NCBI GenBank assembly: GCA_045593385.1
Contig: JAZNWP010000048.1
Coordinates: 1 to 55,211, forward strand
Reading direction: 5' to 3'
DNA from: Acutalibacteraceae bacterium
GTDB lineage: Bacteria > Bacillota > Clostridia > Oscillospirales > Acutalibacteraceae
Length of the DNA: 55,211 bases
Shown here piece by piece: positions 2,584 through 45,479 of this stretch. The position numbers were made by a program, and so were the translations under genes. The notes under the pieces were generated by a model. That model saw nothing but the letters and a program-made list of their open reading frames with translations. It was not told the DNA's origin and did not search any database. Each line of letters begins with the position of its first letter. The first letter of the stretch is position 1.

Positions 2584-2614
2584 TAAATAAAAAGATAAAA
2601 AGGAGATAAAAATT

Positions 2615-3946
2615 ATGGATTTTGAACAAGGTCAATTAATTCAATAGTTAGATGATGGAACTGAAATTAATTATTATCCAAAAACTTTATTTAGTTCAGT
2701 CTATGAAAATGAAAAAGATAATGCTCTTAATTTAAAAGAGTATTTAAATAATTTTAAAATAGAGGATTCGGGTCTAATAAAAATAGGAAAAGATACTGAG
2801 TTAGCTAGCGTAACTTTAATAAAATCATCATTATATGTAAAGCCAGAAAATAGTGGTATTATTTCATATGGTAGAATAGAATTAGATTATCCGATAGAAA
2901 ATGTTGAGGAATTAAGACTATTAAGAATTCCTATTGTTGGGTTAGACGTTTATGAAATTAAGGATTTTGAATTAATAGACAAAAAAATTATTCAATATAA
3001 TTCAAAAGAATATGAATATACCGCCTTAGACATAATTAATGTTTATCAAATAAAATCAAATTCTAAGGGATTAATATCTATTGGAAATGGGACTAAATCT
3101 TTAGGATAGACTCCTTTATCATTTGGAAATTTTATTAAAAATACAGAAAGTATTGTTATAGGAAATTCTAGTACTGGAAAATTTAATTCAATTGCAATTG
3201 GAAATAATTCTTCTTCAGGATTAAATGGTTTGTCAATAGGAAATAATTCTATAAGTGAAAGTTTTAGTATTTTATCTCTTTCAATACCAGGAATTGCCAT
3301 TGGAGATAAAGCTGAAACGGTTGGTGGAATTTCAATCGGATATGGGGCAACAAGTACTTTTGGAAGTGTTTAGCTATCTACTGGAACTAATGAGCAATCT
3401 CAAACTTTAAAATTTATGGAACATTAGATATCAAATGGAACGTCCGTAACTGCTTCTGGGTCAGATATGGCAGAATATTTTGAATGGGAAGATCAAAATA
3501 TTAATAATCAAGACCGAAGAGGGTATTTTGTTACAATAAAAAATAATAAAATATAGCTTGCTACTTCAAAAAGTGATTATATTTTAGGAGTCGTTTCTTC
3601 TGAAGGTATTGCTTCATTTATCGGAAATACTGCGGTAGAAAATTGGAAAAATAAGTATTTAAAGGATATTTATGGAGATTATATTTTAGATGAAAATGGA
3701 GAAAAAATTATAAATCCAGAATTTAAAGAGACTGAAAAATATATTCCAAGAAAAGATAGAAAAGAATGGGCAGTAGTTTGTCTTATTGGATAGATTGTTA
3801 TTAATGATGATGGAACTTGCGTTCCAGGTGAATACTGTAAAGTTAATGATAATGGAGAAGGAACTGCCGCAAATATTGAAGATAATATAAAATATAAAGT
3901 TTTAGAAAGATTAGATAATAATCATATAAGAATTTTATTTAAATAA
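2615..3946 (+). CDS. tail fibre/appendage-like protein, 443 aa, with IGN-rich repeats
   Basis: SD aaaaggag then ATG 2615. Frame 2 is open to TAA 3944-3946 with about 6 in-frame TAG. Repeats IGNGTKSLG/IGNSSTGKFNSIAIGNNSSSGLNGLSIGNNS, then a globular C-terminus. Confidence 0.5.
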
Positions 3947-3998: not shown

Positions 3999-4096
3999 GT
4001 CAAGACTATTTAATATAATAAAGATTATTTTTAAATAAATTAGAAATAAAATATAAAATTTTATTTTAAATAAATAAGTTAGAAAGGAGAAAATAT

Positions 4097-7000
4097 ATGG
4101 AAAGAATTAGCTCATTTGATAAGATTCCTTTTAGTTTTGTTTAGTGTTCTTCAAAATATATAAAAGATATTGAAGCTGGAAATAAAACTATTCAAGAAGG
4201 CGCTGTATATTTTGTTTTAGATACGAAATAGATTTTTTTAGGTAAAAATAATAATTTAATTTCTATGGGAAAAGGATCTGGAATAATTTTTGCATTAAAA
4301 GAAACTGATTTAAATAATTTAGATCCTAATGTTTCTTTTAATTTACAAGATTTAGAAGAAGAGTACCAAGCAAATTATCCTTAGCCGAATGATTTAATTT
4401 TTAATAAAGATGGTTGTTTTTATAGAGTTTTAGAAATAGATAATACACAAATAAAAACAATTCGTTTAACTGTTGCTGGTGGCGGCAGTGGAGGTGGAGG
4501 CGGCGTCGGAGGAGCTTCTTCTATTATTTTGGCTGCCTATGCAACTGATGTTGATGATACTATTGTTTATGGAGATTCTTGTGAAATTCAATATGAATTT
4601 TGGGCTACTATGGATGGAGTTTCTACTGGTAGTGGCGTTAGAGAAATTATTATTAACGGAATAACTAAAGAAAGAAAAAATATTCCTCAAAGTACAACTG
4701 ATAATCCATATTAGATCATTGATATTTCTAAATACTTAGAGCCTGGAGATAATTTTATCCAATTAAAATGTTCTGATGTATATGGTAACTATAAAATATT
4801 ACAATTTTCAAGAGCTGTTGTCAAATTAGAAATTGATGATTCAAATTTAACTGCAAAAAACACAAAAAAAATTTTTGCAACTGAAAATGATAGTTTTACT
4901 TATACTTATATTCCCTATGGAATTGGTGAAAAAATTATTACTTTTACTTTAAAAAAAGATGATGGAACTACTACCCAGACCTTAGAAACATTTACCACTT
5001 CTGGCTCGGAGCGTAATAAAACTTTTTCGAATTTGGCTTATGGAGTTTATACATTAGAAGTATCTATGACTACCACCGTAAATGGGAAAGATTTAACTCC
5101 AGTTTAGTATTTTTATACAATTTTATGTGCGGCAAATCCGCCAGATCCTTTAACTGAATTCCATCAACCAATTATAGCTTCTTATTTACCAATATAGGAA
5201 GTTTCTCAGGGTAGTCAGATTGAATTTTATTATATGTTAAATGATCCGGCTAAAAAGACAAATAGTTCAGTTAAATTAGTTATAAAATATAAAGATTCTT
5301 TTGGAGTTATTAAAACTTATAGTGTATCTAATTCAAGAATCGTAAATTCTTTAGTTCATGATATTTGGAGAGAAAGAAATTATCCTTTGCATGATGAAGT
5401 TTATTTTTCTATTAGATATGACTACACAGACGCAATGACTGGACAAGAAATCTCTTTATCTTCTCAAGAATGGAAAGTTAAAGTAAACGCTTCTGAAATG
5501 GATAACAATATATCAAGTTCTGGTTTATTATTATCATTAAGTGCAAATGGAAGAACTAATAATGAAGATAAAAATACTATAAATCAATGGATTTATAATT
5601 CAATTACTACGGATTTTGAAAATGTTAATTGGGTAAATGATAATAATAGTGGAACTGGTTGGTTATCAGATGTAGATAAAAATTCAGTATTGAGATTAAA
5701 TGGTAGAGCTTCTGCAACAGTAAATTTTTATCCATTTAAATATGAAACTACTTCATCTGCGAATAATTTAATCGGAAGTGGATATACCTTAGAGTTAGAT
5801 TTTGCAATTAGAGATGTTAATAATAAAAATGCAATTGCAATTAATTGTATGGATAAAGAAAATGTTGGATTTAAAGTTAGTGCTAATAAAATTACTTTTA
5901 GAGGTAGAACCGGCACTGAATTATCTTCTCATTTTAATGAAGAAGAAAGAGTTAAAGTAACTTTCGTTGTGGAATCTAATGCGAAAACACCAGATGGAGA
6001 GTATGTAACGTCTAGACTTATATCTATTTATTTAAATGGTGTTTTATCTAGTGCTTAGCAATATGCTCCTGAAGAAACGTTTTAGCAAGTAAAACCATTA
6101 GGAATTACATTTGGTTCTCCAGATTGTAGTATTGATATTTATAATATTAGAGCTTATAATCGAGCTTTAACTTCTAAAGAAATTGTAAATAATTTTATTT
6201 ATGACATATCAAATATAGCTACACAATCTGCATATTATGAAAATAATGATGTTTATGATGATTATAATCAATTATCTTATACAAAATTAAAAGAAAAGAA
6301 TTCTATCATGACGATTATTGGTGATTTACCTTCTTTTAAAGGAGATAAAAAGAAAGTTACTATTAAATATGAATGTTTATTTAATAAAGATTTTGATTTT
6401 GAAGATGACGCAAATTTAGATGTGTAGGGTACATCTTCTTAGCTTTATATTAGAAAAAATTATAAAATAAAATGCGATTCAGAGCATTAGCACGGTGAAA
6501 ATCAATTACCAAATAAAGTTTTTTGTTTAAAAGCTGATTATGCTGAATCAACAAGTACTCATAATACTCAAAATGCAAATTTAGTACATACTTTTTATAC
6601 TGAAGAAACTCCAGCTTAGAAAGATGATAAAAGATGTAGAACATCTATATATGGATATCCAATAATAGTATTCCATCAAAAAACTTTAGAATCGACTCCG
6701 GAATTTATTGGAAAGTATAATTTTAACTTTGACAAAGGTAGCGAAGAAGTCTTTGGATTTACTGAAGCTTATGACGTTGAGTGTTGGGAATTTTGTAATA
6801 ATGACAGTAATGCTTGTAATTTTTTAGGACCTATTGCTGAAAATTGGAAAGATGATTTTGAACCAAGATATCTAGCACCTTTTACTATTAACCAAGGAAC
6901 TGAAGATGAATTAGAAATATCTTTTGATAGAATTGAAGAGCTTCAAGAAAAAGAAACTCTAACTGATAAAGAAAAAGCAGAATTAAAGACTCAAAGAGAA

Positions 7001-9997
7001 AAAGCTATAGAAAGATTTAAAACCATGCATAACTGGGTAGTTTCAACAAAAGATGATATTGATAAATTTAAAAATGAATTTGAGCAATATTTTGATTTAC
7101 ATTATTGTTTGATTTATTACGTTTATACTTTTGTTGCTTTAATGGTAGACCAAAGAGCAAAAAATATGTTTTTAACTTATTGGGGAAAAACTAATAAGTG
7201 GCAACCTTGGTTTTATGACAATGATACTTGTTTTGGTTTAAATAATGTTGGTAAAATGACATATGAATATTATCATGAAGATACTGATAAATATGGAAAT
7301 GGTAATGTATATAATGGTCAAGAAAGCGTATTATGGACTAATTTTAGGGAATGTTTTCCTACTGAAATAAGAGACACTTATGCAAGATTGCGAAGTGAAA
7401 AATTAATTAGTTATAATAATTTCATTGACAGATTTATTGAAAATGGATCAAATAAATGGTCAGAAACTGTCTATAATGAAGATACTGAATATAAATATAT
7501 TTATCCTTTAAAAAGTGAAGAAGATTCTAGCCATCTTACTAAGATTCAAGGAACTGGAGAAGAATACCTTCGTTATTTTATTGATAAAAGATTAAATTAT
7601 TGTGATAGTAAATGGAATTGTGGAGATTATGTAGATGATACTATTGCTTTAAGATTTTATACTCCAGACACTTGGGAAGGTATTGCACCAGATCCGACCA
7701 TTACCGTAACTCCTTTTACAAAAATGTATACTGGAGTTCGATATAAAGCTAATGGAACTCTAAAACAATAGAGAACAGAAGCTGATAAAACTGCAACCTT
7801 CTCTCCAGAATCTTCTGACTATGAAGAAGGGGAATATGAGGGTAAATTTAATGATACTGAAGTAGCGATTTATGGTGCTTCTAATTTATCTTCTATAGGA
7901 GATTTATCTGCTTGTTATTTAGGTTCTATTGACATTGGTAAGGCAGTTCGTTTAACTGAATTAAAAGTTGGTAATTCAACTGAAGGATATTATAATAATT
8001 TATTAAAAGAAGTAAATATTGGTACAAATAAATTATTAAAAAAAGTTGATTTTACTAATTGTGTTGAATTAAGAGGAAACTTAGATTTATCTAATTGTCC
8101 TAATATTGAAGAAATAAAAACTTTTGGAACTAAACTTTCAAGTGTATCTTTATCATCTTCTGGACATATTACTAAATTATATTTACCAGAAACAATTTTT
8201 AATTTAACTTTATCTAATTAGTCTTTTATTGAAGATTTTTAGATTTAGACTTTAAATGATGAATTATCCCCTTATCGAAATTTAAGAGAGATTTTAATTA
8301 TAAATTGTCCAACTATTGATTCTCAAAAAATGTTAGAGGAAATAGTTGATAACTTTTCTTCTGAATATGTGTCAATAAAAACAACTTTATCTGCCCCATC
8401 TGGAGAAAATTTATTAATAAATATATATGCTGATGGAGCCATTACAACAGAAATTTATGATGAACAAACTTCTTCATCTGCAAAAACAATTTATAAATTT
8501 ATTCAGGATCATGGAGATAATTCAACTTCAGAAGATTTAAGATATTTTACAGTTGTTTATAAAGAAGAAAATGATACAATTGTTTTAAACGAAACTTTTT
8601 CTGAATTAATAGCAGCTCTTAATAATAATGATAAAATTTATTTAGGTGGTTTAGAACTTACGAATATTGAACAACAAGGAAAATATTTAGACATAGGATT
8701 TATTAACATAGATTGGGACTTTGAAAATGCAGATTTCTTATTATCTTTATTAGATAATGAGAATATTCGAGGAAAACACCCAGAAACAAATGTTATTGAT
8801 CCAAATATGATTTGGATTACTGGAACTTGTCATATTAAAAAACTTAATGGTGAAGAAATGAAAAAACTTAAATCTAATTATCCAGAAGATTTAAAAATAA
8901 CTTATGATGACCTCACAGCTAATTTAAGTTTTTATTTGGGCGGAGACACCGTAGCAGATGGAGAAAACGCTTATTATCATTATAATTACACAATAGGAGA
9001 TACAATTACTTCTGATGAATATTTAACTTTTAGATAGATTTGGATTGATAATAAAGGTATTGATTGTACACAAGAAAATTTGTCTGAATATTTTACTTTA
9101 ATTTTAGAAGAAAATACAGTAATTTCTGGAACTTGTAAGAAAAATGTAGAAATTATTAGAGATTTATTTATTCCGATCCAAATTGCCGCAACCCAAGAAA
9201 TTTTAAATGGTGGAAATGGATTTAATCCTGTCGGCAAAGAGATTGAAGCTCCTAAAAAAGCTTCAACAGCTAAATACGATTATACTTTTAGTGGTTGGGC
9301 ATATCGTTCAGGAGCAGTGGCTAATGATATTATTTTAAATAATATCGAGCAAAATACTAAAGTTTATGCAACCTTTACTAAAACAATAAAAAAATATCCA
9401 GTATATTTTTATAATGATCCATTAAAAGAAGGGAAAGCACCGATTAAATCATTAATAGGAGATCAAATGATAGCTTATGGAAATGGTGTTCCCACAAATG
9501 AAATACCTCCAAATCCAGAATATCCAGATGAAAGTTTGAAACAAGATTATACTTTTACTGGTTGGGATCCAAATCCAACAAAAATTACTGGAGAAACTCA
9601 TTGTTAGGCACAATATAGTTATACAGCTTATTCTCCTGTTCGTTTAATAGAAAGAGATATTGTTGAATTTAGCAGTAATACTTTAACCGATATTGGAGAT
9701 TATGCTTTTTATAATTGTGCAGAATTAGAAATTGTAAATACACCTTTTGTTTTATCGATTGGTTAGTTTGCTTTTGAAGGGTGTTCTGTTTTAGATACTT
9801 TAATCTTATTAAATAATGAACAAGTTTGTACTCTTGGTACAAATGCTTTAAAAGGAACTTTAATTGAACAAAATAAAGGAAGTATTTATGTCGCAGACAA
9901 TATGGTTGAATTATATCAAAACCATAGTGATTGGAACAATTATAAAGATTATATAAAATCAATTAATGAATTAACTATTTTGGAGGTGAATGAATAA
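4097..9997 (+). CDS. giant multidomain fibre/adhesin-like protein, 1966 aa. Contains a Gly-rich linker, LamG (Laminin_G_3)-like domain, CotH kinase-like domain, LRR region, Listeria-Bacteroides (YxFxGW) repeats and a C-terminal BspA-type LRR. About 25 in-frame TAG.
   Basis: SD gaaaggag then ATG 4097. Frame 2 has no TAA/TGA until TAA 9995-9997. Track ORFs 4529.., 5234.., 7025.., 8330.. and 9080.. are all frame 2 and separated only by TAG. LamG signature ...VTFVVESNAKTPDGEYVTSRLISIYLNGVL... then IDIYNIRAYNRALTSKEI. CotH signature MVDQRAKNMFLTYWGKTNKWQPWFYDNDTCFG. LRR_5-type IGDYAFYNCAELEIVNTPF...FAFEGCSVLDTL. YDYTFSGWAY / DYTFTGWDPNP repeats. Confidence 0.6.
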
Positions 9998-9999
9998 TT

Positions 10000-12162
10000 A
10001 TGGCTAGTAAAATGACTGTTGAAAGAAAAATTTATTATGGTTCAGCTATAGATAAAACTAATGTTGATGGTAGTTTCGGTTTTGGGGCTATATATTGTAT
10101 AGGACATTCAGATTTTTCTTCTACTAGTTCTCACTCAAAAGGAGTAAAAGACAACATTCCTCCTTATTCAATTATTAATTCAACAACTATGGGAGTTGAT
10201 AGTGGTACTATTTCTATTACTACTGACGGATTAGATGGTTCTTATTCTTGGCGGCTCATAATAGAAGCATATTATAGATATGTTACGAGCGAGGGAGACA
10301 ATAGCTCAAAATATTCTGGTTCTTTAGGAAATACCAATAATTTTAGAGAAAGTGGTAATCCAAATTCCTTTTCAAATTTTTCTTCTGTTGTTTCTAAATA
10401 TAAGTATGGAACAGCATCAGATTTTTCGAGTGGTACAGAAAATGCAGGATTATTAAAGGCCTTTGATATAAATAATAGTTATACGAATGAAGAAACAAGT
10501 TCTCTTCGTTTTTATTGGGAAGAAAATGGACTAGGACTGAACGCTTCTGCATTATCAATAAAGAATAGTCAACCTTATATAACTTATGAGATTACTTTAC
10601 CCACAATAACTTTATTATCAAATAATTTAGAAATGGGAACGGTTAATGGGGCAGAAAGTGATAATATTTATAATATAGATGTTTCAAGTTCTTATTCTGT
10701 AACAGCTGAACCAAAGCCTGGATATCGTTTTGTAAAATGGTCAGATGGAAATGAAGAAAGGATAAGAACTTTTACTAAAATGGATTTAACTTCTTCGAAT
10801 ACTGAGATTACAGCAGAATTTATTCCCTATTATACAATATCTTATAATTTAAATGGAGGAAATACTAGTGAAACTAGAATAAATTTTTATGATAGTTTAT
10901 ATGGAGCATTAGATTCTAATTTATCTCCTACAGGAGTTTCTGAAATTATTATACCAACTCCATTAAAAACTGGCTATACTTTTATTGGATGGACGGGAAC
11001 AGATATTGAGGAACCTTCCATGGTTATTAATATTCCTTTAGGCTCTTCTGGAAATCGTACTTATACAGCTAATTGGCAAATTAATCAATATAAAGTTACT
11101 ATTAATTGCTCTCCAGAAGACAGCGGAATTGCAACAATTATTTTAAAAGATGGTACTGAATTTTCTAACAGTTCAAAATTATTAGACTATGGAACTTCTT
11201 TGACTGCAATTTCTGCAACAACTACTGATGTTGATAAGTATGAATTTTCAGAGTTCACTATTACTGGAAAAACACCAAGCTTAAATAATACTTTATATGG
11301 ATAGGTTGTACCAGCATAGGACATTGCTTATATAGCTTATTTTGATTTAAAAAAATATGCTGTAACTGCTTCTTCTGTATTAATTTCTTATGATGAAGAT
11401 GGAAATGAGATTGAAACCCAAGATGATTGCGCAGTTTTTGAATTAAATAATCTAAGTACATTTACGCCATAGGAGTATGGAAAATCAATTTATATTTCAT
11501 TTTTGCCCAAATTTGGATATAAATTTGTAAAATGGAAAAATACTGAAACTTCAAAAATGAATAAAGCAGTATTAGAAACAGTAGTTACTGGCGAAATTAA
11601 AGCAGTCGCTTGTTTTGAAAAAATTGAGCCAACTAATAATTCAATCCCAGATAATGTTGAAAATTTGCCATTAGCAGAAAAAGAAAAATTAATTACCTCA
11701 ATTGCAGATTCAATAATTAATAAAACAATTATTAATTATATTAATACCGTAAAGATGAATTCAATAGGTGATTATATATTTTATAATTGTGATAAATTAA
11801 AGTTTATTAATATCCCAAATGTCAATCCTTCAGCTCTTGGAAGTTATGCATTTTATGGATGTAAAAATTTAACTAGTTTACGACTTCCTGAAAATATTAC
11901 TGAATTAAAAGACCATGCTTTTGAAAATTGTATTAATTTAACTACTTTAATAATTCCAAACTCTTCATTGGTAGAATTAACAGGTCAGGATGTATTTTGG
12001 AATACACCGTTTTGTAATTCATTATATAATCAACCTTTTGGATACATTTATGTTCCAGAAGCTTTAATATCTGATTATAAGACAAGGACAAATTGGGTAT
12101 TATATGCAGAGAGATTTAGACCTATTGAAGAGTATTCGGCAATTTGTGGTGTGGAGGAGTAA
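10000..12162 (+). CDS. receptor-binding-protein-like fibre, 720 aa, with Listeria-Bacteroides repeats and a BspA-type LRR C-terminus; 3 in-frame TAG; merges track ORFs 10000..11304 and 11503..12162
   Basis: SD ggaggtg then ATG 10000, 2 nt after the giant gene's TAA. TAG at 11302, 11320 and 11470, then continuing frame 1 to TAA 12160-12162. Motifs PKPGYRFVKWSDG, KTGYTFIGWTG, PKFGYKFVKWKN and IGDYIFYNCDKLKFINIPN...YAFYGCKNLTSLRLPENITELKDHAFENCINLTTLIIP. Confidence 0.6.
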
Positions 12163-15470: not shown

Positions 15471-15490
15471 CATAAAGGAGGATTTTTGAT

Positions 15491-15889
15491 ATGGAAAATA
15501 TTAATTGGTTAGAATTATTATATCAAATTTTAGAGGTTTGTATCATCCCTCTCTTGGGAATCCTTACAGCCTTTATTGTAAAATTTATTAAAGTAAAAAG
15601 TAATGAAATTACTATGAAAATAGAAAATGATAAAGTTGATAAATATATTAATATGTTAGAAAACACTATTTCTTCTTGTGTTATTGCAACAAACCAAACT
15701 TATGTTGAAACATTGAAGAATAAAAATGCTTTTACTGCGGAAGCTCAAAGAGAGGCTTTTAATATGACTCTTAATGCGGTTATGGCAGTTTTAACCGAAG
15801 ATGCAAAAGAGTATTTGCGCTCGATATATGGAGATTTAGATACCTATATCACTGCGCAGATTGAGGCTCAAGTTAATTTGAGCAAGTGA
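15491..15889 (+). CDS. holin-like membrane protein (single N-terminal transmembrane segment plus hydrophilic tail; Holin_LLH-like architecture)
   Basis: SD aaggagg then ATG. N-terminal hydrophobic stretch LLYQILEVCIIPLLGILTAFIVKFI followed by an amphipathic charged C-terminus. Position at the end of the structural block. Ends TGA. Confidence 0.4.
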   Translation: MENINWLELLYQILEVCIIPLLGILTAFIVKFIKVKSNEITMKIENDKVDKYINMLENTISSCVIATNQTYVETLKNKNAFTAEAQREAFNMTLNAVMAVLTEDAKEYLRSIYGDLDTYITAQIEAQVNLSK

Positions 15890-15940: not shown

Positions 15941-16030
15941 CCCAAAAATGGGATAAAATAGATTATTTTGGGTCCTTAAAAGGTTATTTTCTGTGCTTAA
16001 AAAGGTTACTTTTCGTTTAAAAAATGAACT
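15919..16030. repeat. cluster of degenerate direct repeats AAAAGGTWAYTTTY / TTTTGGGYC
   Basis: Copies at about 15921 (cgaaaaaggtatttttt), 15979 (ttaaaaggttattttc) and 16001 (ttaaaaaggttactttt), plus ttttgggca/ttttgggtcc. A GC-rich imperfect palindrome lies at 16030-16075. Sits between the holin gene and the higher-GC cassette. Confidence 0.4.
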
Positions 16031-16162
16031 CGAAGTGGTCCCTAGAAGGTTGGCCTTTGGTCCGCACTAGGACAGTATTCATTAATTTTGCCTTCCTAAT
16101 TTTTACATAGTAATGGAGGGGAATGGATATAAAAATTTTTTGTATGGAAGGAGACCTTACAT

Positions 16163-16582
16163 ATGTATCAAAACTATAATTATTATCCAGGTCAGAACCA
16201 ACAAGTCTCCCAAGCTGCTTATGTGTCGCCGCAAACATACCTACGGCAGGCGCCGCCGCAAGGATTAAAAGGCCGTCCAGTAGCATCATTAGAAGAGGCA
16301 CGTGCAACCTCAATAGATTTTGATGGTTCAGTATTTTACTTTCCTGACATTGCGAACAGACGAATTTATACGAAACAAATTAATATCGATGGCACTGCTA
16401 ACTTGCAAATGTATGAATTGAAAGAATTACCAAAAGAAACAGAGTTGTAGCAAGTCCCCACTGATTAGTTTGTTACTAAAGAAGAGTTTGAAAGGGTATT
16501 GGCGGAGTTACGCCAGAGTCTAGCCGGTTAGACTGCACCTGTCGTTGTCGAGAAACCTAAAACAGAGATACTAGCATTCTGA
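16163..16582 (+). CDS. Pro/Gln-rich hypothetical protein, 139 aa, 3 in-frame TAG, ends TGA
   Basis: SD ggaaggag then ATG. Track ORF 16163..16450 continues in frame through TAG 16448, 16466 and 16529 to TGA 16580-16582, followed by an SD. Higher GC than flanks. Confidence 0.45.
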
Positions 16583-16600
16583 AAGAAGGAGGTATGAATA

Positions 16601-16855
16601 ATGTATCCTGTAGACCCAAATGTATTAATTCAATTAATTAAACAAGGTCAAAACCCTCAACAACTAATGCTAAAAATATTATAGGGTTAGGCCGGAAGCA
16701 ACCCCCTCGTAAATAATCTCCTATCTTTAGCTCAACAAGGTAGAACTACAGAAATTGAACAAGTAGTTCGGAATCTTTACACTCAATAGGGTGGACAAGA
16801 TTTTGACCGCGATTTCGCAGCCTTTAAAAAATCATTAGGCTACGAGACAAAATAA
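16601..16855 (+). CDS. Gln-rich hypothetical protein, 84 aa, 3 in-frame TAG
   Basis: SD gaaggagg 8 nt before ATG 16601. TAG at 16685, 16691 and 16787. TAA 16853-16855. Confidence 0.45.
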
Positions 16856-16882
16856 AACTAAATTTTAAGGAGGACAAAAATT

Positions 16883-17641
16883 ATGTTTAATGGAAAAGGT
16901 TACAATTTATCAGATATTGCTGCTGTAACAGGTCGCAATGGAAATGGTGATGGAATGTTCGGAGACAATGGTTGGTGGATCATTCTGTTATTCTTATTTG
17001 CTGGCTGGGGCCGTGGCTTTGGCGGATTTGGTGGCGGAGGAGTAGAAGGTGTTCCCGCAACTCAAGCTGATGTGCGCGCCGCAGTAGATCAACAGACTTT
17101 AATTTCTAAATTAGATAATCAGACTTATGGATTAGCTGATTCTACTTATGCTCTTAATAATTCTCTTATGAGTGGTTTCCATGGAGTAGATACAGCCATT
17201 TGCACTCTTGGATATAATATGCAAGGTGGTTTTAATACTCTTGGTCATCAGATTAGTGATTGTTGCTGCGAAACTGGTCGTGCCATTGAGCGCGGTTTTG
17301 CAGATACCAATTATAATATGGCTACTCAGGCTTGCGATACTCGTAGAGCAATTGCCGATAGCACAAGAGATATTATTGATGCTAATAATGCTGGTGTTCG
17401 TTCTATTCTTGATTTCTTAACTCAAGATAAGATTGCTGCTTTAACAGCTGAAAATCAAACTTTGAAATTTGCAGCTTCTCAGGCAAATCAGAACGCATTT
17501 ATTACTGCTAACCAAGAAGCTCAGACTGCGGAATTAGTTCGTAGACTTGCAACTCCTTGCCCAGTTCCAGCATATGTAGTTCCCAATCCAAATTGTTGCT
17601 ATAATCAATGCGGATGTGGCAATGGCTTTGGCTCTTTCTAA
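16883..17641 (+). CDS. membrane-anchored Gly/Cys-rich protein, 252 aa, unknown function
   Basis: SD aaggagg then ATG. Intact ORF. TM-like WWIILLFLFAGWG, Gly-rich GFGGFGGGG, cysteine clusters CCCETG and CCYNQCGCGNGFG. Markedly higher GC than the surrounding genome. Confidence 0.55.
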   Translation: MFNGKGYNLSDIAAVTGRNGNGDGMFGDNGWWIILLFLFAGWGRGFGGFGGGGVEGVPATQADVRAAVDQQTLISKLDNQTYGLADSTYALNNSLMSGFHGVDTAICTLGYNMQGGFNTLGHQISDCCCETGRAIERGFADTNYNMATQACDTRRAIADSTRDIIDANNAGVRSILDFLTQDKIAALTAENQTLKFAASQANQNAFITANQEAQTAELVRRLATPCPVPAYVVPNPNCCYNQCGCGNGFGSF

Positions 17642-17663
17642 TTGAATAAGGAGGTTGAATTTT

Positions 17664-18086
17664 ATGGAAATTATTGCTAATGCTTTACAAACTGTAGCAG
17701 CAAATCAAAATGTTTATTTCACAGACACGGTAGTTTGTGGTAATGTTTCCATAAGTCACCGAGATGATAGTGGGTTGGTCACTCTTCGTGGAGTGACCAA
17801 CACTCAATGTAGAGCTCGTTTTAAAGTGACTTTTGGTGGAAATATCGCAGTTCCAACTGGAGAAACTGTAGGTCCTATTCAATTAGCTATTGCCATTGAA
17901 GGAGAACCGGCTTTAGCAACAACTATGATAGTTACTCCAGCCGCAGTAGAACAATTCTTTAATGTTGGCGCAAGTATTTTTATTGATGTGCCTCGTGGTT
18001 GTTGTGCTACTGTTAGTGTAAAAAATACTTCCACTATTCCAGTAGAAGTTCAGAATGCTAATTTAATTATTACTCGTGAAGCATAA
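17664..18086 (+). CDS. hypothetical protein, 140 aa, all-beta, with weak resemblance to exosporium BclA C-terminal (TNF/C1q-like) domains
   Basis: SD aaggagg 9 nt before ATG 17664 (track ORF starts slightly upstream at 17655). C-terminal pattern ...ATVSVKNTSTIPVEVQNANLIITREA resembles ...SLALGTSASIIIEKVA of BclA-CTD. This is a from-memory resemblance only. Confidence 0.4.
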   Translation: MEIIANALQTVAANQNVYFTDTVVCGNVSISHRDDSGLVTLRGVTNTQCRARFKVTFGGNIAVPTGETVGPIQLAIAIEGEPALATTMIVTPAAVEQFFNVGASIFIDVPRGCCATVSVKNTSTIPVEVQNANLIITREA

Positions 18087-18103
18087 GAAGGGAGTGTGAA
18101 GCT

Positions 18104-18739
18104 ATGCATGATAAATTAAAACACATGAAAGAAACTCTTATGTGCGCGGTTGAAATGCAGTTATGTGATCTTAGCGAAGTAGATACCAAAGAACTTGGAG
18201 AAGTAATTGATATGATTAAAGATTTAGAAGAAGCAATCTACTATTGCACAGTCACAGAAGCTATGACAAATCCTCTACAAGAAAAAGAGTGGAAAATGCA
18301 AGAAAATGGCCATCACCAAGAAAATGGTGATAGCCGTATGTATTATGATGGTCCAATGTATAAAATGATGTATGCAGATGATGGGCGTCGTCGTAGATCA
18401 GATGGAACTTTTTATGCTGATAGTGGAAATAGTGCATCTGGAGGCCAGAATTATTCAATGTATTCTGATTCTAATATGAACAGTTCAAATGGAAGAAATT
18501 ATACAAATTCAATGTATAATGATTCTATGAACGGACGTAGTTATAATAGTAGAAGAATGTATATGGAAGCTAAACATTCTCATCAAGATAAATCAGTTTA
18601 GCTTCGAGAATTAGAAAAATATATGCAGGAACTTTCTCAAGATGTAGTCGAAATGATTGAAGATGCGTCTTCTGAGGAAAAGCAATATTTAGAAAAGAAA
18701 ATATCTGCTCTTGCTACTAAGATAGGTCAAATGAAATGA
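18104..18739 (+). CDS. low-complexity N/S/Y/M-rich protein, 211 aa, 1 in-frame TAG, ends TGA
   Basis: Track ORF 18104..18601 ends at TAG 18599. Frame continues (QLRELEKYMQELSQD...KIGQMK) to TGA 18737-18739, overlapping the next ATG (ATGA). Confidence 0.5.
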
Positions 18740-19047
18740 TTATTAATGGATTGCGCTGGCGCGTCCGATTGGTCTCACCAGCGCACCCTCTCTTACTAAC
18801 TCCATGGCGCACACACGCATATGGAGTTTGTGATAAAACAACACAAACAATTTGCATTGATAAGACCCTTTCCCCTCACCATTTAAAAGAAGTCTTATGT
18901 CATGAAATTGTTCATGCTTTTATGTTTAGTTATGGTGTTGATTTATCATATGTAGAAGAAGAAATAGTAGCAGAATTAATTTCAGAATATGGAGAAGATA
19001 TTGTAAAAGAAGCTAATGTCATTTATAATGGCATAAAAATGAAATAA
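18736..19047 (+). CDS. putative HExxH zinc metallopeptidase-like protein, 103 aa
   Basis: HEIVHAF motif. ATG overlaps the upstream TGA. Followed by a strong terminator. Confidence 0.45.
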   Translation: MIINGLRWRVRLVSPAHPLLLTPWRTHAYGVCDKTTQTICIDKTLSPHHLKEVLCHEIVHAFMFSYGVDLSYVEEEIVAELISEYGEDIVKEANVIYNGIKMK

Positions 19048-22443: not shown

Positions 22444-24669
22444 TTAAGAAAATTCACTATGCTTGATACGATGTTCAACCTCTGACTATTTTCCTTTGTT
22501 AAAATGTCTATAATCAGTTGTTAAATAACCAGTTACTCTGCGCAATTGTTGGATATTTTCACTTCCGCATTCAGGACAAGTATCATTGAATTCACCCTAA
22601 AAACCGCAATCAAGGCAAGAATCAATGGGGAAATTAAATGCCAAATAAGGAATATCCAATTCTTTAAAAGCATAATCAATAATTTGTTCTATTGCTTTAG
22701 TATTTTTTACAAAAGTAGAATCTAATTCAACATAAGTAATACAACCACCAGTAGGATATTTACAGAAAGGAGCCTCAATAGCTAACTTTTCAAAGATACC
22801 TATTTTCTACCATACAGGAACATGATGGCTATTGGTTAAGAATTCTTTATCAGTGACATTTGGAATAGAACCATATTGCTTGCGCAAAGCCTTAACCGCA
22901 CTATGACATAAGCCTTCGGCAGGAGTCGCATAACAAGAGAAATTTAAATTATGTCTTTCAGATGCTTCTTTGGCATATTCATTAATTCTTTTTACAACCT
23001 TTAAAGCAAATTCACGAACTTCTGGATCTGTATGATTTTTACCAAACAATGCTTGACACATTTCTGCAATTCCGATGTACCCCATAGCAAGAGTACCATG
23101 TTTAAGTGCTTCATAATTAGACACTCTACATTTTTGAGAATCCATCATAGTTCCATTTTGATACATAAATGGAGCTGCTTCTGGAGGTTGATTAACCATA
23201 ATATCAAAACGTTCTAATAATCCTTGTTCACATAATTGAAGCAATTCTTCAAATGCAATCCAAAAGCCGTTTAAATCAGGTTCGGTACGCTTACCCAGGC
23301 AGATTCCATATTCGATTCCTAATTTTGGAAGTATCATAGTATTAGGAACTAGATTACCTCTACCAACTCTTTTATAAGATTTTGAATGACGATCATATCC
23401 AATCATTGTCCTGCAACCCATTGTGCTGAATAGGGTGTCGATATCTTCTGGGTTCTCATTTGCCTAAGAATAATCGCAATTAACAAAATTGGGATAAATG
23501 CGTTTACTTAAAGATTCTAATGCTAGTTGTTTTAAATCATAGTTTGGATCTTCTGGATTGGCATTACAACCTTGTTTATATTGGAAAATACTAATAGGAA
23601 ATATTGGTGTTAAATGATGTTTTCCAATACCGGACAGAGAAGATTCAAGCATTTTACGAGAAACGAATTTTCCTTCTGGTGAAGTATCTCTACCAAAGTT
23701 GATAGATGTAAAGGGAACCTGTGAACCAGCTCTTGATTCTAATGTATTTAAATTATGATACATAGCTTCTCCTGCTTGTGTACCCTCTCTTTCTAACTGT
23801 TTAATAGCATAGTTATATGCTTTACCAAATATTTGTTCATGAGTTGCTAATTTTTTATTATCAATACAAATTTCTCCAAATGTTTTTTCAAAATCTATCA
23901 TTAAATCTTTGGCAGTTTTTTCATTATATTCACAAACATCTGTTAAATAATTTTTAATATATTTTTTAAAACTTCTCTTTACAAATGGTGCGAGATCATA
24001 ATCCAAGTGAATTGTTCCAACTCCGCCAAATTGAACCTGAGATTGACATTGAAAAATAACTGCGGTCTGCTGACAAGCACTACTAAACGAAGAAGGTGGA
24101 CGAATATCTCCATTTCTGGTAGAAAATCCATCTGTAAATAATTTTTTAAAATCTACTTGAAGACAATTGTGTTGACCAATATTTGTTTTTTCTAAATCAT
24201 GTTGATACAATAACATATCTCTATGAGCACTACTAATTCTTGGTGATAAAGTATAGTCAAGAGCGATTGTTTTTTGAAGGTCAGCGGAAGCTTCTTTTTC
24301 TCTTCCAGAAAAACTTTTTTCATCAACATTTGCGTTTGAATTTTCAACAGCGATAGCTTCAGTTCTTCTCATTACATTTTTTAATAAATTGCTACGACGT
24401 ATTCTTTCTTTATTGCGCTGGTCTCTATATAAAATATAAGATTTAGCAACTTCTGGATATTCACTTTTCATAAGTTGTTCTTCAACTAAATCTTGTATCT
24501 ATTCAACTGTAAGGTCTTTGCCCAATTGACCAATAGAATCCGCAATTTCTTCTGCGGTTTCAGTTTCATACACTGCTCCATAAGAACTAATCATTGCTTT
24601 ACTAATTGCATTTACAATTTTATCTGGATTAAATAATACTCTAGTTCCATCTCTTTTTATTACATACAT
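22444..24669 (-). CDS. nrdD: anaerobic ribonucleoside-triphosphate reductase, 741 aa, 5 in-frame TAG; merges track ORFs 22807..23421 and 23464..24471
   Basis: SD ggagg 7 nt before ATG 24669. N-terminal ATP-cone (MYVIKRDGTRVLFNPDKIVNAISKA). C-terminal Zn ribbon CLDCGF-TAG-GEFNDTCPECG and glycyl-radical motif RVTGYL. All pieces are in one frame separated only by TAG. TAA 22444-22446. Confidence 0.8.
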
Positions 24670-24705
24670 AAATTAACCTCCTTAATAAAAATACTATATT
24701 TTGTA

Positions 24706-24756: not shown

Positions 24757-25323
24757 TCAATTTTGTCCTTGGGCGAATTGAGTCTCAGCCTAGCTCACAA
24801 TCTTTTTAGGGGCAGCTACTAACATAATTGCACTATCATTTTTGAGTTCAAAATAGTCAAATTCTATATTTTCAAAATCTTCGAAATCTGTTATCGCACG
24901 GCGGACAATTTCTTTTACATTGGGATTTTCTTCTCTATTTAATTGGCGCAGTAGGCGCTCTTTATCGGAAGTCCGCACCCATACAACAAAAACATTACAA
25001 GTTTTTAATTTTAACAAAGTTCTGACCGCGTTAGGACTAAATACCCCAATATTAATTTTATTTTCATCAAGAGCTTTTAATTCTGTTCCATATTGCCAGT
25101 TATTAAAAATTTGATAATCAATCATTTCATTATTATAAATTTTCTCAAAGAATTCTTCATCAGAATAGTAAAAATAATTAACTCTATCTATTTCTTTTTC
25201 TCTTTTTGGTCTACTTGTTGAAGTAATTATTTTATGTAAATCTGGATACTGTATTAAAGTTTCCTTTAATACAGTATCTTTCCCGCTACCAGATTCACCC
25301 ATAAGAGCAATGATATTATACAT
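24757..25323 (-). CDS. guanylate-kinase-like / dNMP kinase-like P-loop protein, 188 aa, 1 in-frame TAG
   Basis: P-loop GESGSGKDT and TSTSRPKREKEIDRVNYFYYSDEEF (guanylate kinase TTRxxRxGE..G.dY.F fold). Track ORF ends at TAG 24790. Frame continues to TGA 24757-24759. Confidence 0.55.
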
Positions 25324-28300
25324 CTTCTTCTACTCCTCCTTGATAACGAGCATCTTGAAGAATTAATTCTCCATTCATTAAAATCTCATTAATCTTATAT
25401 AATTGATGACCACCAGTAGATACATATTTCTTTGAGATGAAATCATCTCCTGAGCGAATACCGGTTACAACAATCATATTACCTCTATTAAACCAAGACT
25501 TTTCCACTATCTTCTTTGTGCCATCTGGCTGCCGCACAGAAATTTGCTTATCAAATAATGTAAAGTATTCTTTTCTAAATTTTACATTTACAACACCAGA
25601 AGGAGTTAACACGCTCACTGTGCTTTTAGTTTTATTCTTTGCGATACAAGTTCCGCAAATACGATTCAATTTAAATATATGAACTTCTTTTCCACCTTTT
25701 GAGAATGAATAATCAATTACTGGATCTTCTGGAAGGCTATAAAAATCTACAAAACCATATCTATCATTGTTAATATGTGCTAATTCATGTTCATGATAAT
25801 AAAAACATAATGCTTCCATTTCCCAAGATGACAAAGTTCCAGTTGCATATTTATTCCAATCTTCCATAAAGATTTCTTTGTTTAATTCATTAAGGATTTT
25901 ATCTTTTTCAAGAGCAATCCATTTGCGGAATACATCCATGTGCTTTTGATATACATTATCCCAAGTTTTAGTTCCAATAAACCAAGCGAGATTATCTGTC
26001 TCCATTAAATCATCAAGACTAAGTTCTTGTAAGAAGCTAATTGCTCTTGTATCCAATGTATATTTATCTTTATAACTATATTTATCAGCTTTTGTAATTG
26101 CTTTTAAATATCTATTAAATTCATAAACTCTGCGAGCAAGAATCTGTTCTTCTGTTTCTTCTGGAAGTAAGTTATGTTTAATTAAACCACCCATATTTTG
26201 AAGAGTTATTCTATTCTTTTTATCACAAGTTTCCCAGATATACCAAGTCATAACAAACTTTCTATCTTCCATTTCATCAAAGGCTCCACCTTTGATTAAT
26301 GAAATCATTGCCTGTTTTCCAGGTTTTACTTTATTTAAAAAATCTCTCGGTGAACTATATGGTCTATTAGCGATGATAGCCGCAACAACATCGTCTCCAA
26401 CATTAAGCATACCTTTGAGTCCAAAAAGTATCTGATTATTTTCGACGTCAGGAACAAATCCATAACTTGATTTATTAATGTTTGCCAAGCTAACTTTAAT
26501 TCCAGCACTAGTGATGTCACCGATTGCTTTTGCTATTTTTGCATAATCAGTTGATCCTCCTGCTTCTTCATCTGTTGCTCCACTATTTACAATAAGACAA
26601 GCAGTATTCCAATAAATAGGATTAAAATTAATGACAAAATAAATGGATTGCATACCAACAAATGAATATGGTAATGAGTGATTTAATGAGAACGCATATC
26701 CAAGCTGTGGAGCAATTGCGTTTTCCCAAAAATAATTTGCGACTTTAACATCATCAAATTGTCCATATACTTTTTCACGAAGTTCCGGGATTTTACTCAT
26801 TTGTTTCTTACCTACAATTTTACGTGCGCCGTTCGCTTCACCGAGCGTAAAGCCAGCTACATCCATAAGCAATTCCATCATTTGTTCCTGAATTGCACAA
26901 CAACCCCAATATTGGTCGCAATGTTTGTGCATGAGCTTGATCATTTCTTCGGTTAATCCAGCCTCGCGCATTTCCTTATCAAATACACCTAATCCATTTT
27001 TCTGAATACGAGCATATCTATCTTGCTGAGATTCTTTATCTTTTTCAGACATAAGTCTCATCATCGCGTTTGCCGCAGTCATTTCCATCGGATTCTGCGG
27101 TTTAAGTTTTTTTGCTATTGCTAATCCGACTCCGGTGTTGAACTGAAATACATCAAGAACATCGCCGGCCGCAAGATGATCCCAAATTCTTTGATCTGTT
27201 GTATCCATTACTTCTGGATGAATATACTTATTATATAAATCTCTTAATCCCATTTTCTCAATAATTTTATCTTCTACAAGAAGTTCAAAACATTTGATAA
27301 TCTTGTCTGAAATTTCAGTTACGAGGAAGTCATACTTTGTATCTCCTGCTGCTTCTGCTTTATGAAGATCATAACAAGTAATCAAATCTCCACTTGGAGT
27401 TCTCATAAAAGCCGCAGTTTCAAATGGGTCTTCACCATATAAGATAACACCAGATGCGTGAGAAGAACGCTTATTAACAAGTCCTTCGATTGACATAATA
27501 ATATCCAATAAACCTGGATAATTATTTACTTCTCTAATAAATGCACTTACAGGTTTTCTATCTTTTTCTTCATTTCCATAAACAACATCATTAATACTCC
27601 ACAAGAAACCTCTCTCTTGGGGAACCAATGAACTCATATATTGTGCGAGGTCGACATCGATTCCATCTGGATAATCCTCGCTTCTATAACCGCGGCAAGC
27701 CGTGAGTATAGCTGATTTTGTTCCTTCTGTTCCAAAAGTAGCTACCTGAATGAGTCCTAACTCTCCACGCTCTTGTCTAATTCTACGGAAGATCTCCGGT
27801 CTTTTAGATGGAGCGAGGTCGATGTCGATATCGGGCAATTCGGCTCTTTCTTTATTAAGGAAACGCCAGTAAGGTAGATTCCATCTGACTGGGTCTAATT
27901 GGGTAATACCCAAGAGATAGTTTGATAGAAATCCTGTGGCTGAACCTCGACCTGGTCCAACAATGCTGCCACACTCCCAGAATAAGTCAATATAGTGTTT
28001 AAAGGTATTAAAGTATGCGAATAAGCAGTCATCAAGTTTTTCTCCTATATCTTTAATAATATCGGCTTCTATTTCTAAACGATCCCAATAATTTATTTTA
28101 TTATGCAAATCTTTGTCGTGTAAGCTTTTAGCGCACTCAAATAACCAATATCTCTCTTGAATATTACCTTCTTCATAAAGTTCTTTTAATACTGGCCATT
28201 TTCCTCCAGAGAAATCCCAATCTACGTGTTTAATATATTCATAAATATCCCAATCACTATATTCTGGTAATTCAATTTTGGGAATCATTTGTTTTCTTTC

Positions 28301-32996: not shown

Positions 32997-33156
32997 AATG
33001 TTATCCTACAAAGTAGGTATACGCCTTTTGGGCGTTTGTTTGTCTAATATTATAACTAAAAGAAGCACATCTTTCATAGCATTTCGCAAAACATAATGCT
33101 GCTTCAGACGGACTAGATAAATTTAAAAAATTTAAATAATTCATTGAACTACTATA

Positions 33157-33936
33157 TTTATATCCAAATACATTGAATTCTTTTTCAATAGTATTTTTAA
33201 GATATTCGCACTAATATTCTAAACTAGCCCCTGATAAAGTTCCATCAGTGTATGGTAAATACCACTAACAAATACCATAATATTGACCACTGTATAAATA
33301 TGGTTCTATATTTAAAGTCTAACCTCCAACTTCTGCCATAATATTACCCATAATTCCAGCGCATACATAGTCATTCCAACCTAACTCTTTCATATACAAC
33401 CAAATATATGATGCCACCGGATATTCAGATTTTCTTTTTTGCCACAATTCTTCCTCATAATCTATTTCTTCTATTTCAGTAGTAGTTTCGATTATAATTG
33501 GTGTAGTTGTTTCTTCTATAGTTGTTGAAATTTCATTAAAAGTAGTCTTAATTGTGGTTTCTATTTCAGTTGTGCTTTCAACTGTTCCACAGACTTCTTC
33601 CTCAATTGTAGTTTCTACAATTTCAGATGTTATTTCTTTAACAACATTTTCAATTATCTCACAAGATTCTTCTTCAATAATGCTTTCTGTTGGTTTGTAG
33701 GCTATATATTTAACCTCATAAAAAATTTCAGTAGATTCTTCTACCATTCCTTCAGTAGTAGTTTCTAATAATGGTATAACTTTTTTTACAACTTTTTTAG
33801 ATGGGATGTTAATTTCTAATATAGTTGAATTAATTGTTTTATCAGTTATGGCTGATATGTTTTTTATAGATAGAGTAAAAAATAAACTGATTGATAAAAT
33901 AAGTGCTATAATAGCAGTTAGAATATTTTTTTTCAT
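33157..33936 (-). CDS. secreted protein with signal peptide, Thr/Glu-rich linker and a phage-tail-lysozyme-like (peptidoglycan hydrolase) C-terminal domain, 259 aa, 3 in-frame TAG
   Basis: N-terminus MKKNILTAIIALILSISLFFTLSIKNISA is signal-peptide-like. Repetitive TTEIETTIKTT linker. C-terminus VCAGIMGNIMAEVGG resembles the AxGIxGNxxxESG motif of tail-lysozyme domains. Track ORF 33319.. extended through TAG to TAA 33157-33159. Confidence 0.4.
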
Positions 33937-33975
33937 AATTACCTCCTAATATTTCTATCAGGCCGTCAATTATAT

Positions 33976-45425: not shown

Positions 45426-45479
45426 AGTAAAAAAAATAAGGGGTAAGAATTATTTTCTTACCCCTTTGATAAAATCAAA

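Follow-up and report, generated by a model that had tools for sequence, protein, structure and literature searches.

One TAG-recoded gene in a phage tail module

The gene under study lies at 4097..9997 of the window (the whole 55,211-nt stretch of DNA analyzed) on the + strand, as do all features described below. It starts at ATG 4097, 7 nt after a Shine-Dalgarno-like AAAGGAG read directly from the sequence (4083..4089), and ends at TAA 9995-9997, so that 1966 codons precede the stop when its 19 in-frame TAG codons are read as glutamine. These are the only internal stops of the frame (19 TAG, 0 TAA, 0 TGA) in a gene whose G+C content is 27%, and TAA plus TGA codons number 96 and 274 in the two remaining frames over this interval. 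TAG positions 777, 841 and 1375 align with glutamine in 29/29, 24/29 and 16/29 homologs, respectively, and a standard-code bacterial homolog carries CAA at position 777. NCBI already holds an identical protein of 1966 aa (P0001), encoded on a 176-kb contig, and all tail genes of the window have the same TAG pattern, as does a syntenic contig (L004). The proposal of the preliminary description that this is one continuous frame with TAG read through is thus borne out by the stop counts, the glutamine columns and the identical database protein. The opposite reading, in which TAG terminates, the stretch has decayed into a pseudogene or consists of separate ORFs, and 7025-7771 is a gene in its own right, could draw on the shortness of the standard-code pieces (the longest being 274, 248, 235 and 175 aa) and on our finding no suppressor tRNA in the window, but it is effectively refuted by the lack of TAA and TGA over 1966 codons at this base composition, by the glutamine columns, by the TAG pattern shared among the tail genes and with the syntenic contig, and by a single kinase fold modeled at a pLDDT of 92.7 across five TAG codons, of which the ORF at 7025-7771 makes up only the C-lobe.

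The surroundings of the gene agree with the phage fiber setting that had been proposed for it. Upstream lies a fiber gene with a Peptidase_G2 chaperone domain, and downstream a gene for an LRR_5/Flg_new protein, followed by a holin gene. Homologs are placed in tail modules as well: in a siphovirus prophage (L005) the order is Dit, Tal, two small genes, the homolog, one small gene, holin and endolysin; in Hankyphage (L002) the homolog follows the baseplate hub and a minor tail protein and bears a DGR variable repeat at its C-terminus; and in an Empedobacter prophage (L001) it lies ~6 kb downstream of the tape-measure gene in the same gene array. The family occupies the receptor-binding slot of tail modules, and the locus is very probably a single gene for a giant modular tail fiber or receptor-binding protein, from a large low-G+C phage (the 176-kb contig) in whose tail genes TAG specifies glutamine. 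The replication genes of the window resemble those of SPbeta-group phages and not those of crAss-like phages, and the host of the phage is probably a member of the Bacillota.

Domain organization of the protein

The protein is built from a conserved core with exchangeable ends. The 64 homologs compared (1095-2778 aa, mostly 1700-2700 aa) share residues 471-1470, and segment-wise BLAST searches revealed that this core is retained but the N- and C-terminal parts are exchanged. The order of parts (glycine linker, LamG, CotH, LRRs, Flg_new repeats and LRR_5) is as originally described, with several refinements of extent.

The N-terminal domain (aa 11-125; 4127..4471), recognized by segment BLAST and in the AlphaFold (AF2) model, is present in only a subset of homologs, with something else in its place in the rest, and would represent an exchangeable module that attaches the fiber to the virion. 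It is followed by the Gly-rich flexible linker GGGSGGGGGVGG (aa 126-139; 4472..4513), which has a pLDDT below 50 in the AF2 model and accounts for the GC-rich patch noticed earlier at 4480-4510. Residues 140-470 (4514..5506) are predicted from AF2 secondary structure to form three or four all-beta Ig-like spacer domains, and their Foldseek matches are tandem-Ig proteins.

The core opens with a probable LamG/concanavalin-A-like jelly roll (aa 477-690; 5525..6166). A Laminin_G_3-type domain had been placed at 5234-6200, and this assignment was supported, at sub-threshold level, over a narrower extent. Pfam Laminin_G_3 (PF13385) gave no match on the full-length protein, and on the isolated segment it reached E 8.6e-5 and 23.2 bits (cut-off 27.6) while covering profile positions 8-150 of 151; the same family matches 5/13 relatives, with a best E of 4.7e-9. 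The family profile finds the NanA lectin domain 4c1w (E 5e-4) and, weakly, calreticulin. The AF2 model of this block is all-beta, with pLDDT values mostly between 85 and 95 except in a short loop near aa 552-555, and a fold search with the multi-domain model containing it was swamped by tandem-Ig matches.

The kinase-like domain described below is followed by a beta-sandwich domain in the AF2 model (aa 1180-1290; 7634..7966) and by a leucine-rich-repeat stretch (aa 1291-1470; 7967..8506), which is kept in most homologs and forms the last part of the conserved core. That leucine-rich repeats follow the CotH domain is supported by the family profile, which matches the LRR protein 4h09 there, but Pfam returned no match when the stretch was scanned alone. 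Residues 1471-1712 (8507..9232) constitute a variable middle region with no family assignment and no Pfam match, and with similarity only in close relatives. The YxFxGW repeats that had been read as Flg_new-type do occur twice (KYDYTFSGW and QDYTFTGW, within 9233..9616), but their Pfam assignment is sub-threshold: one repeat matches Flg_new (PF09479; cut-off 27) at only 21.2 bits and E 3.2e-4, and Flg_new_2 with E 0.012. The BspA-type LRR_5 cap at the C-terminus (9617..9994), probably the receptor-binding tip, is confirmed: LRR_5 (PF13306) exceeds its cut-off of 27.7 both with the full-length protein (30.8 bits) and with the fragment (37.9 bits, E 2e-9). The gene that follows (10000..12162) has a homologous C-terminus of the same kind, with LRR_5, Flg_new_2 and a Flg_new match above the gathering score. 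The pair of genes recurs in the syntenic contig, and the neighbor is a candidate for a second receptor-binding protein of the same module.

The CotH domain and its putative active site

Residues 768-1172 (6398..7612) form a CotH-type atypical protein-kinase-like domain, an assignment confirmed by Pfam, AF2 and Foldseek. Pfam CotH (PF08757; cut-off 23.8) matches the isolated domain with 32.2 bits (E 1.1e-7) and the full-length protein with 21.3 bits, under the cut-off, and the match takes in only positions 117-296 of the 322 in the profile. The region was modeled with a pLDDT of 92.7 and a pTM of 0.91, and the only significant PDB matches of the model are the two B. cereus CotH kinase structures, 5JDA (E 6.7e-12) and 5JD9 (E 1.7e-11), with target-normalized TM-scores of 0.71-0.72 and a probability of 1.0; the next match has E 0.15. 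Sequence profile searches against PDB sequences did not reach CotH 5JD9. Both the domain search and the structural comparison suggested in the preliminary description thus recovered CotH, but the domain itself spans 6398-7612, and the region of 7025-7770 to which it had been assigned corresponds to a standard-code ORF covering the C-lobe. The domain also contains a helical insertion of ~65 residues at about aa 925-990.

Residues expected at a kinase-type active site are conserved across ~215 homolog clusters that are at most 50% identical to each other. K812 (6530..6532), at the end of an N-lobe strand, is present in 215/215 homologs and, judging from topology, is a putative ATP-binding lysine. 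A putative catalytic loop, D1018-Q-R-A-K1022-N1023 (7148..7165; D in 214/215, K in 215/215 and N in 215/215 homologs), comes in the AF2 model after a helix (1001-1013) and before two strands, a kinase-like order. The motif Y1040-D1041-N-D1043 (7214..7225), with both aspartates in 214/214 homologs, is a putative metal-binding, DFG-equivalent element. The catalytic residues of B. subtilis CotH are D228 and D251 (PMC7821199). The 23 residues from D1018 to D1041 equal the spacing from D228 to D251, and, judging from motif, spacing and predicted topology, the two pairs may be equivalent.

The invariance of these putative catalytic residues, and the completeness of the kinase-type site that they would form, lead us to expect activity, and the domain is likely to be an Mg-nucleotide-dependent phosphotransferase rather than an inert scaffold. 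Kinase-like folds can also support different reactions, AMPylation and glycan phosphorylation among them. A non-catalytic role, in which the CotH domain serves as a binding or structural module that aids adhesion or fiber rigidity, has a precedent in the fungal CotH invasins, since the Mucorales CotH proteins are ligands for GRP78 and integrin (PMC9973265), and it would suit a long fiber whose other modules are all binders. However, the expected nucleotide-binding, metal-binding and catalytic residues are invariant within a domain that is elsewhere variable (columns average 44% identity even in a set of 8 sequences), a pattern typical of an active site and not of a scaffold, and we regard this role as unlikely.

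A large and previously noticed family

The occurrence of a CotH domain within a phage fiber, which had been considered unusual, proved to be common. A profile of the CotH core found at least 4785 clusters at 50% identity, and among the best 150 of these the proteins are mostly ~2000 aa long, with the CotH domain ~650-1300 residues in. Hankyphage, crAss002, Bacillus phage G and the DAC Bacteroides phages are among the 45 deposited phage genomes that the same profile matches. Fold matches in BFVD comprise 22 structure entries, which derive from ~15 viral proteins, and some of these already carry the name "CotH kinase protein" or "Spore coat protein H kinase fold". The combination of CotH and Laminin_G_3 in phage proteins of ~2000 aa has also been noted before (Wu 2018, PMC5758913; Benler 2021, PMC8008677): these are the primary motifs of the DGR targets placed in category f1 (Wu et al., 2018), and the proteins were referred to as "currently unstudied" (Benler 2021). 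The LamG-CotH-LRR core defines a large family that has been noticed but not characterized, and the protein encoded at 4097-9997 is a new member of it.

How the fiber might work

Taken as a whole, the locus is explained best, and with somewhat better than even confidence, by a giant modular tail fiber carrying a probably active CotH kinase. Such a fiber would run from the exchangeable N-terminal attachment domain through the glycine linker and Ig-like spacers to the LamG/CotH/LRR core and an exchangeable C-terminal tip. The LRR tip, and probably LamG, would bind the host surface, and the CotH domain might phosphorylate the fiber itself or neighboring tail proteins.

The site of action is the more tentative part of this explanation. 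Abundant ATP is confined to the cell interior, and CotH of B. subtilis combines a structural role with the phosphorylation of neighboring proteins while the coat is being assembled. Because of this location of ATP and by analogy to the Bacillus protein, we consider the infected cell, during virion assembly, to be the most plausible setting in which CotH might phosphorylate the fiber or adjacent tail proteins, although we hold this with less than even confidence.

Alternatively, as the preliminary description suggested, a virion-borne CotH domain could modify a host surface component outside the cell, at adsorption, be it a protein or a phosphorylatable glycan (for example capsule or teichoic acid). 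Its position in an exposed fiber, between LamG and LRR modules that bind carbohydrates or other ligands, would fit such a role, as would the invariant catalytic signature, and relatives in the CotH/Fam20 superfamily include sugar kinases. But a kinase requires a nucleotide donor, and such donors are scarce in the extracellular environment; we also found neither a candidate substrate nor, in the literature searched, a precedent for this role, which makes it improbable. Slightly less probable still is the specific version in which the domain phosphorylates or nucleotide-modifies a receptor glycan or protein in the course of adsorption or superinfection exclusion. If true, host-surface activity would add a new enzymatic class to phage receptor-binding proteins, beside depolymerases and esterases, and thousands of gut phages would have conserved it.

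Comparison with known systems

A close counterpart is the DGR target of the gut phage Hankyphage (Bacteroides phage p00, BK010646), a hypervariable tail protein of ~2245 aa with the same LamG-like and CotH core. In a tblastn comparison it aligns with 99% of the CotH core at 26% identity (E 5e-28). Both proteins are encoded in a tail module, in Hankyphage after the baseplate and tail genes, but they differ in their N-terminal domains and in their C-termini: the Hankyphage protein closes with a C-type lectin that contains a DGR variable repeat, with the template repeat and reverse transcriptase adjoining, whereas Flg_new-like repeats and the BspA LRR_5 cap make up the end of the window protein. 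We found no direct repeat of >=50 nt near the 3' end of the gene, and neither a TR/VR repeat nor an RT-like ORF in the 55,211-nt window. Because of these absences over the 55,211 nt analyzed of the 176-kb genome, and of its LRR_5 C-terminus, the protein is a relative of DGR targets and not a DGR target itself.

Bacillus CotH (5JD9, 5JDA; PF08757) shares its atypical kinase fold with the window domain (E 6.7e-12, TM 0.71), as well as the 23-residue spacing in the D...N...D motif, and the window protein, as CotH does, would belong to a large extracellular assembly. Identity between the domains is only about 11-12%, however, and the window domain, unlike Bacillus CotH, is embedded in a 1966-aa fiber and carries the ~65-residue helical insertion; CotB and CotG, the substrates of Bacillus CotH, are without a counterpart here.

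A CotH fold accompanied by LRRs, as in the window protein, also occurs in crAss002 gp20 (annotated as "transferase/internalin-J, leucine rich repeat"; 2622 aa), in gp353 of Bacillus phage G, and in the "internalin-like" and "spore coat protein-like" proteins cr52_1, cr124_1 and cr272_1 of crAss-like phages. These proteins are more distant, with 21-27% identity in the CotH core, and belong to other phage lineages. Finally, the LRR_5 and Flg_new modules of the C-terminus are shared with the BspA/InlB-type adhesins of Bacteroidota and Bacillota, a likeness also seen in the similarity of the family profile to 4fs7, 4h09 and 4gt6; but whereas those adhesins sit on the surface of bacteria, in the present protein the modules probably form the tip of a phage fiber.

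Read-through of in-frame TAG codons yields one 1966-residue tail-fibre protein

The gene at 4097-9997 (+) runs for 1966 codons to a TAA, and all 19 of its internal stops are TAG. TAA and TGA together occur 96 and 274 times in the other two frames over the same 5.9 kb and not once in the gene frame, which at 27% G+C excludes chance. An AAAGGAG lies seven bases ahead of the ATG. Glutamine occupies the column of TAG residue 777 in 29/29 homologues (in 24/29 at residue 841 and 16/29 at residue 1375), one bacterial standard-code homologue has CAA at the position of residue 777, and TAG ranks between CAA (42) and CAG (4) among the glutamine codons of the gene. Together with an identical 1966-residue protein, derived from a 176-kb contig, in an NCBI-derived protein collection, these observations bear out the single continuous TAG-read-through frame of the preliminary description. 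Gene callers that apply the standard code would split the gene into 20 pieces at its 19 in-frame TAGs and miss the CotH kinase-like domain entirely.

Use of in-frame TAG is gene-dependent across the window (1-55211): each other plus-strand gene from 1 to ~15 kb has 3-7, the minus-strand replication genes for DnaE, DnaB, NAD-ligase, GyrA and GyrB have none, and some other minus-strand genes (an NrdD-like gene at 22444-24672, 33001-33957 and 44415-45449) have 5-9. The last of these, with nine, encodes an N-terminal membrane helix and a coiled coil, and its C-terminus resembles GIY-YIG by eye only (GIYKITE...YVGQA). No tRNA genes were found within the 55,211-nt window; a suppressor tRNA, if there is one, has to be encoded outside it. 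The DnaE-type DNA polymerase III alpha subunit (25319-29173, minus strand) shares 40% identity, across 99% of its length, with its counterpart in SPbeta-group Bacillus phages, a sequence likeness that points to a Bacillota host and not to a crAss-like phage; with DnaE, gyrase and ligase forming an SPbeta-like replication module, a crAss-like identity was rejected.

The protein combines a kinase-like CotH domain with lectin-like and leucine-rich parts

A Pfam scan of the full-length protein returned only LRR_5 (30.8 bits, passing) and CotH (21.3 bits, under the cut-off of 23.8), and scans of isolated segments were more sensitive: CotH rose to 32.2 bits (E 1.1e-7; residues 768-1172) against the same cut-off, and LRR_5 in the C-terminal fragment to 37.9 bits (cut-off 27.7). 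Laminin_G_3 (residues 468-700; 23.2 bits, E 8.6e-5, cut-off 27.6) and one Flg_new repeat (21.2 bits, cut-off 27) stayed below threshold. The Laminin_G_3 match spans almost the entire profile, 5/13 relatives also match (best E 4.7e-9), and a family profile of the segment matches pneumococcal NanA in its ConA-like lectin domain (4c1w; E 5e-4). Of the architecture first proposed, CotH and LRR_5 are thus firm, and the sub-threshold LamG and Flg_new assignments are likely.

For aa 1-717, AlphaFold2 gives a model (pLDDT 84) that divides into an N-terminal domain (aa 11-125), a glycine linker modelled as disordered (aa 126-139), a stretch of all-beta Ig-like domains (aa 140-470) and a jelly roll (aa 477-690); Foldseek matches to it were mostly tandem-Ig proteins (complement C5, alpha-2-macroglobulin) and are uninformative on LamG. 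For aa 701-1290, a model built from 36 homologues (mean pLDDT 92.7, pTM 0.91) has as its sole significant PDB fold matches the B. cereus CotH kinase structures 5JDA (E 6.7e-12) and 5JD9 (E 1.7e-11), both with probability 1.0 and a target-normalised TM of 0.71-0.72; the next match has an E of 0.15. This fold match and the segment score uphold the CotH assignment. In the model the kinase fold is unbroken across five TAG codons, so the standard-code ORF 7025-7771, considered as a possible separate gene, is no gene of its own but the C-lobe alone.

Homologues occupy the receptor-binding slot of unrelated phages

The surroundings of the gene are a tail module. Upstream lie a fibre-like gene with a long Gly-rich GGxIGxNxF-type repeat run and no family match (1009-2583) and a fibre with a C-terminal Peptidase_G2 intramolecular-chaperone domain (2591-3946; E 3e-28; phrog_4775, pre-neck appendage). 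The gene directly downstream (10000-12162) specifies a protein of 720 aa carrying LRR_5, Flg_new_2 and Flg_new; two genes without assignment and then a holin (15476-15889) follow. This 720-aa neighbour and the 1966-aa protein have homologous C-terminal BspA caps (26% identity, E 2e-10), and the neighbour is a candidate second receptor-binding protein. The same gene order, including the pair, recurs in a 193-kb TAG-recoded contig.

The truncated first ORF of the window contains a 69-nt direct repeat (4-198; 71% identical, 126-nt spacing) that encodes a repeated NKNIYDKNNKK-type peptide. Directly after the holin, a G+C-rich island (16000-18740; 0.39 versus ~0.27 around it) holds three ORFs nearly without TAG, none with a Pfam family: a Gly/Cys-rich protein (16862-17641; phrog_16490, E 2e-61), a 147-codon ORF whose product, counted from the first Met, is 140 aa (17646-18086; phrog_20016, E 1.5e-56), and an ORF at 18080-18739 whose product has a low-complexity centre rich in Ser, Asn, Arg and Tyr.

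Homologues fill the receptor-binding slot in unrelated phages. In a siphovirus prophage of a Gram-positive host, the order is Dit, Tal, two small genes, the homologue, one small gene, holin, endolysin, one small gene and integrase; in Hankyphage, the homologue is the target of the diversity-generating retroelement (DGR) and follows the baseplate hub and a minor tail protein; in an Empedobacter prophage, it lies ~6 kb downstream of the tape-measure gene in the same gene array. Virion mass spectrometry of Hankyphage lists a 'minor tail protein' (15 peptides, 10% coverage, >250 kDa fraction) that would fit the ~2245-aa DGR target, which we do not count as evidence. A DGR in the window was rejected: there is no direct repeat of at least 50 nt near the 3' end of the gene and no reverse transcriptase-like ORF in the window.

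Segment-wise BLAST across 64 homologues delimits a conserved core of LamG (aa 471-700), CotH (aa 701-1290) and LRR (aa 1291-1470). Outside this core, lineages swap the first 130 residues as well as the entire C-terminal part beyond about residue 1470.

The family is large and already noted

A profile of the CotH core matches 4785 representatives of 50%-identity clusters at E <= 1e-3 (1594 at E <= 1e-30), and the best 150 of these mostly have lengths of 1500-2900 residues and carry the domain ~650-1300 residues in. Megablast of the gene against INPHARED phages gave no match. Tblastn against deposited phage genomes returned 45 records, including Hankyphage and relatives, crAss002 gp20 ('transferase/internalin-J, LRR'), Bacillus phage G gp353, the ~167-179-kb B. 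thetaiotaomicron phages DAC16/19/20/22/23 and SJC03, and one Lacticaseibacillus phage. BFVD holds 22 entries, about 15 viral proteins, with the CotH fold, several already labelled 'CotH kinase protein' or 'Spore coat protein H kinase fold'. CotH and Laminin_G_3 were reported as the main motifs of ~2000-aa DGR targets in phage contexts (Wu et al., 2018; PMC5758913), and likewise in phage proteins of ~2000 aa by Benler et al. (2021; PMC8008677), who call them 'currently unstudied'. CotH domains are therefore nothing unusual in phage fibres, contrary to what was initially supposed.

The window thus brings no new kind of object: the protein is a further member of an already noted, uncharacterised family, with a tip that is not a DGR target. 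Among the carriers of this very large family are some of the most widespread phages of the human gut (Hankyphage, crAss-like phages and phages of Bacteroides thetaiotaomicron), and its interest lies in the task of a conserved kinase-like active site on the tail fibres of thousands of phages.

A conserved putative active site and where it might act

Among about 215 homologues clustered at <=50% identity, a few residues are essentially invariant while the remainder of the CotH domain diverges: K812 (215/215), D1018 (214/215), K1022 and N1023 (215/215 each), D1041 and D1043 (214/214 each), and the QGTSS motif (776-781), of which four positions were counted (Q777, G778, T779 and S781; 212-213/213 each). 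Such conservation favours a nucleotide- and metal-binding active site over a dead scaffold. Putative catalytic residues kept by selection make a simple biochemical test worthwhile.

We tentatively favour, short of considering it likely, that the CotH domain would act on the fibre or neighbouring tail proteins while virions are assembled within the infected cell, because ATP is available there and because CotH is both a structural component and, during assembly, the kinase of its neighbours. The search for a CotB/CotG-like substrate turned up a single, purely speculative candidate, the Ser/Asn/Arg/Tyr-rich ORF at 18080-18739, which matches no family. In crAss002 (MN917146; 182-11514), the CotH-bearing gp20 ('transferase') directly follows the 1153-aa gp19, annotated 'phosphatase', and the two may be a kinase/phosphatase pair in a tail module; the crAss002 paper yielded nothing on gp20. 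A role in binding only is unlikely, the invariant putative nucleotide and metal residues arguing against a pure adhesin. Action on the host surface, as originally suggested, seems quite improbable, and literature searches found no functional studies of CotH in phage receptor-binding proteins.

Comparison with known systems

With its conserved core and exchanged ends, the protein follows the common plan of modular phage fibres, in which a shaft joins the end attached to the virion and a tip that can be swapped. Hankyphage carries a DGR-diversified lectin tip, whereas the 1966-aa protein ends in a BspA LRR tip, on the same LamG-CotH-LRR core: a portable chassis for different binding tips, also found in TAG-recoded phages with SPbeta-like replication genes. 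In protein kinases, a helix is followed by the catalytic loop, two strands and the metal-binding Asp, and the model places its elements in the same order (long helix, D1018xxxKN, two strands, YD1041xD). Phmmer and profile searches of PDB sequences did not reach 5JD9 from the CotH region. It was reached through the fold alone, and for that reason catalytic residues are not alignable residue by residue. Those of B. subtilis CotH are D228 and D251 (PMC7821199), whose spacing of 23 residues equals that of D1018 and D1041, and from this spacing and the modelled order we infer that D1018 and D1041 are their equivalents.
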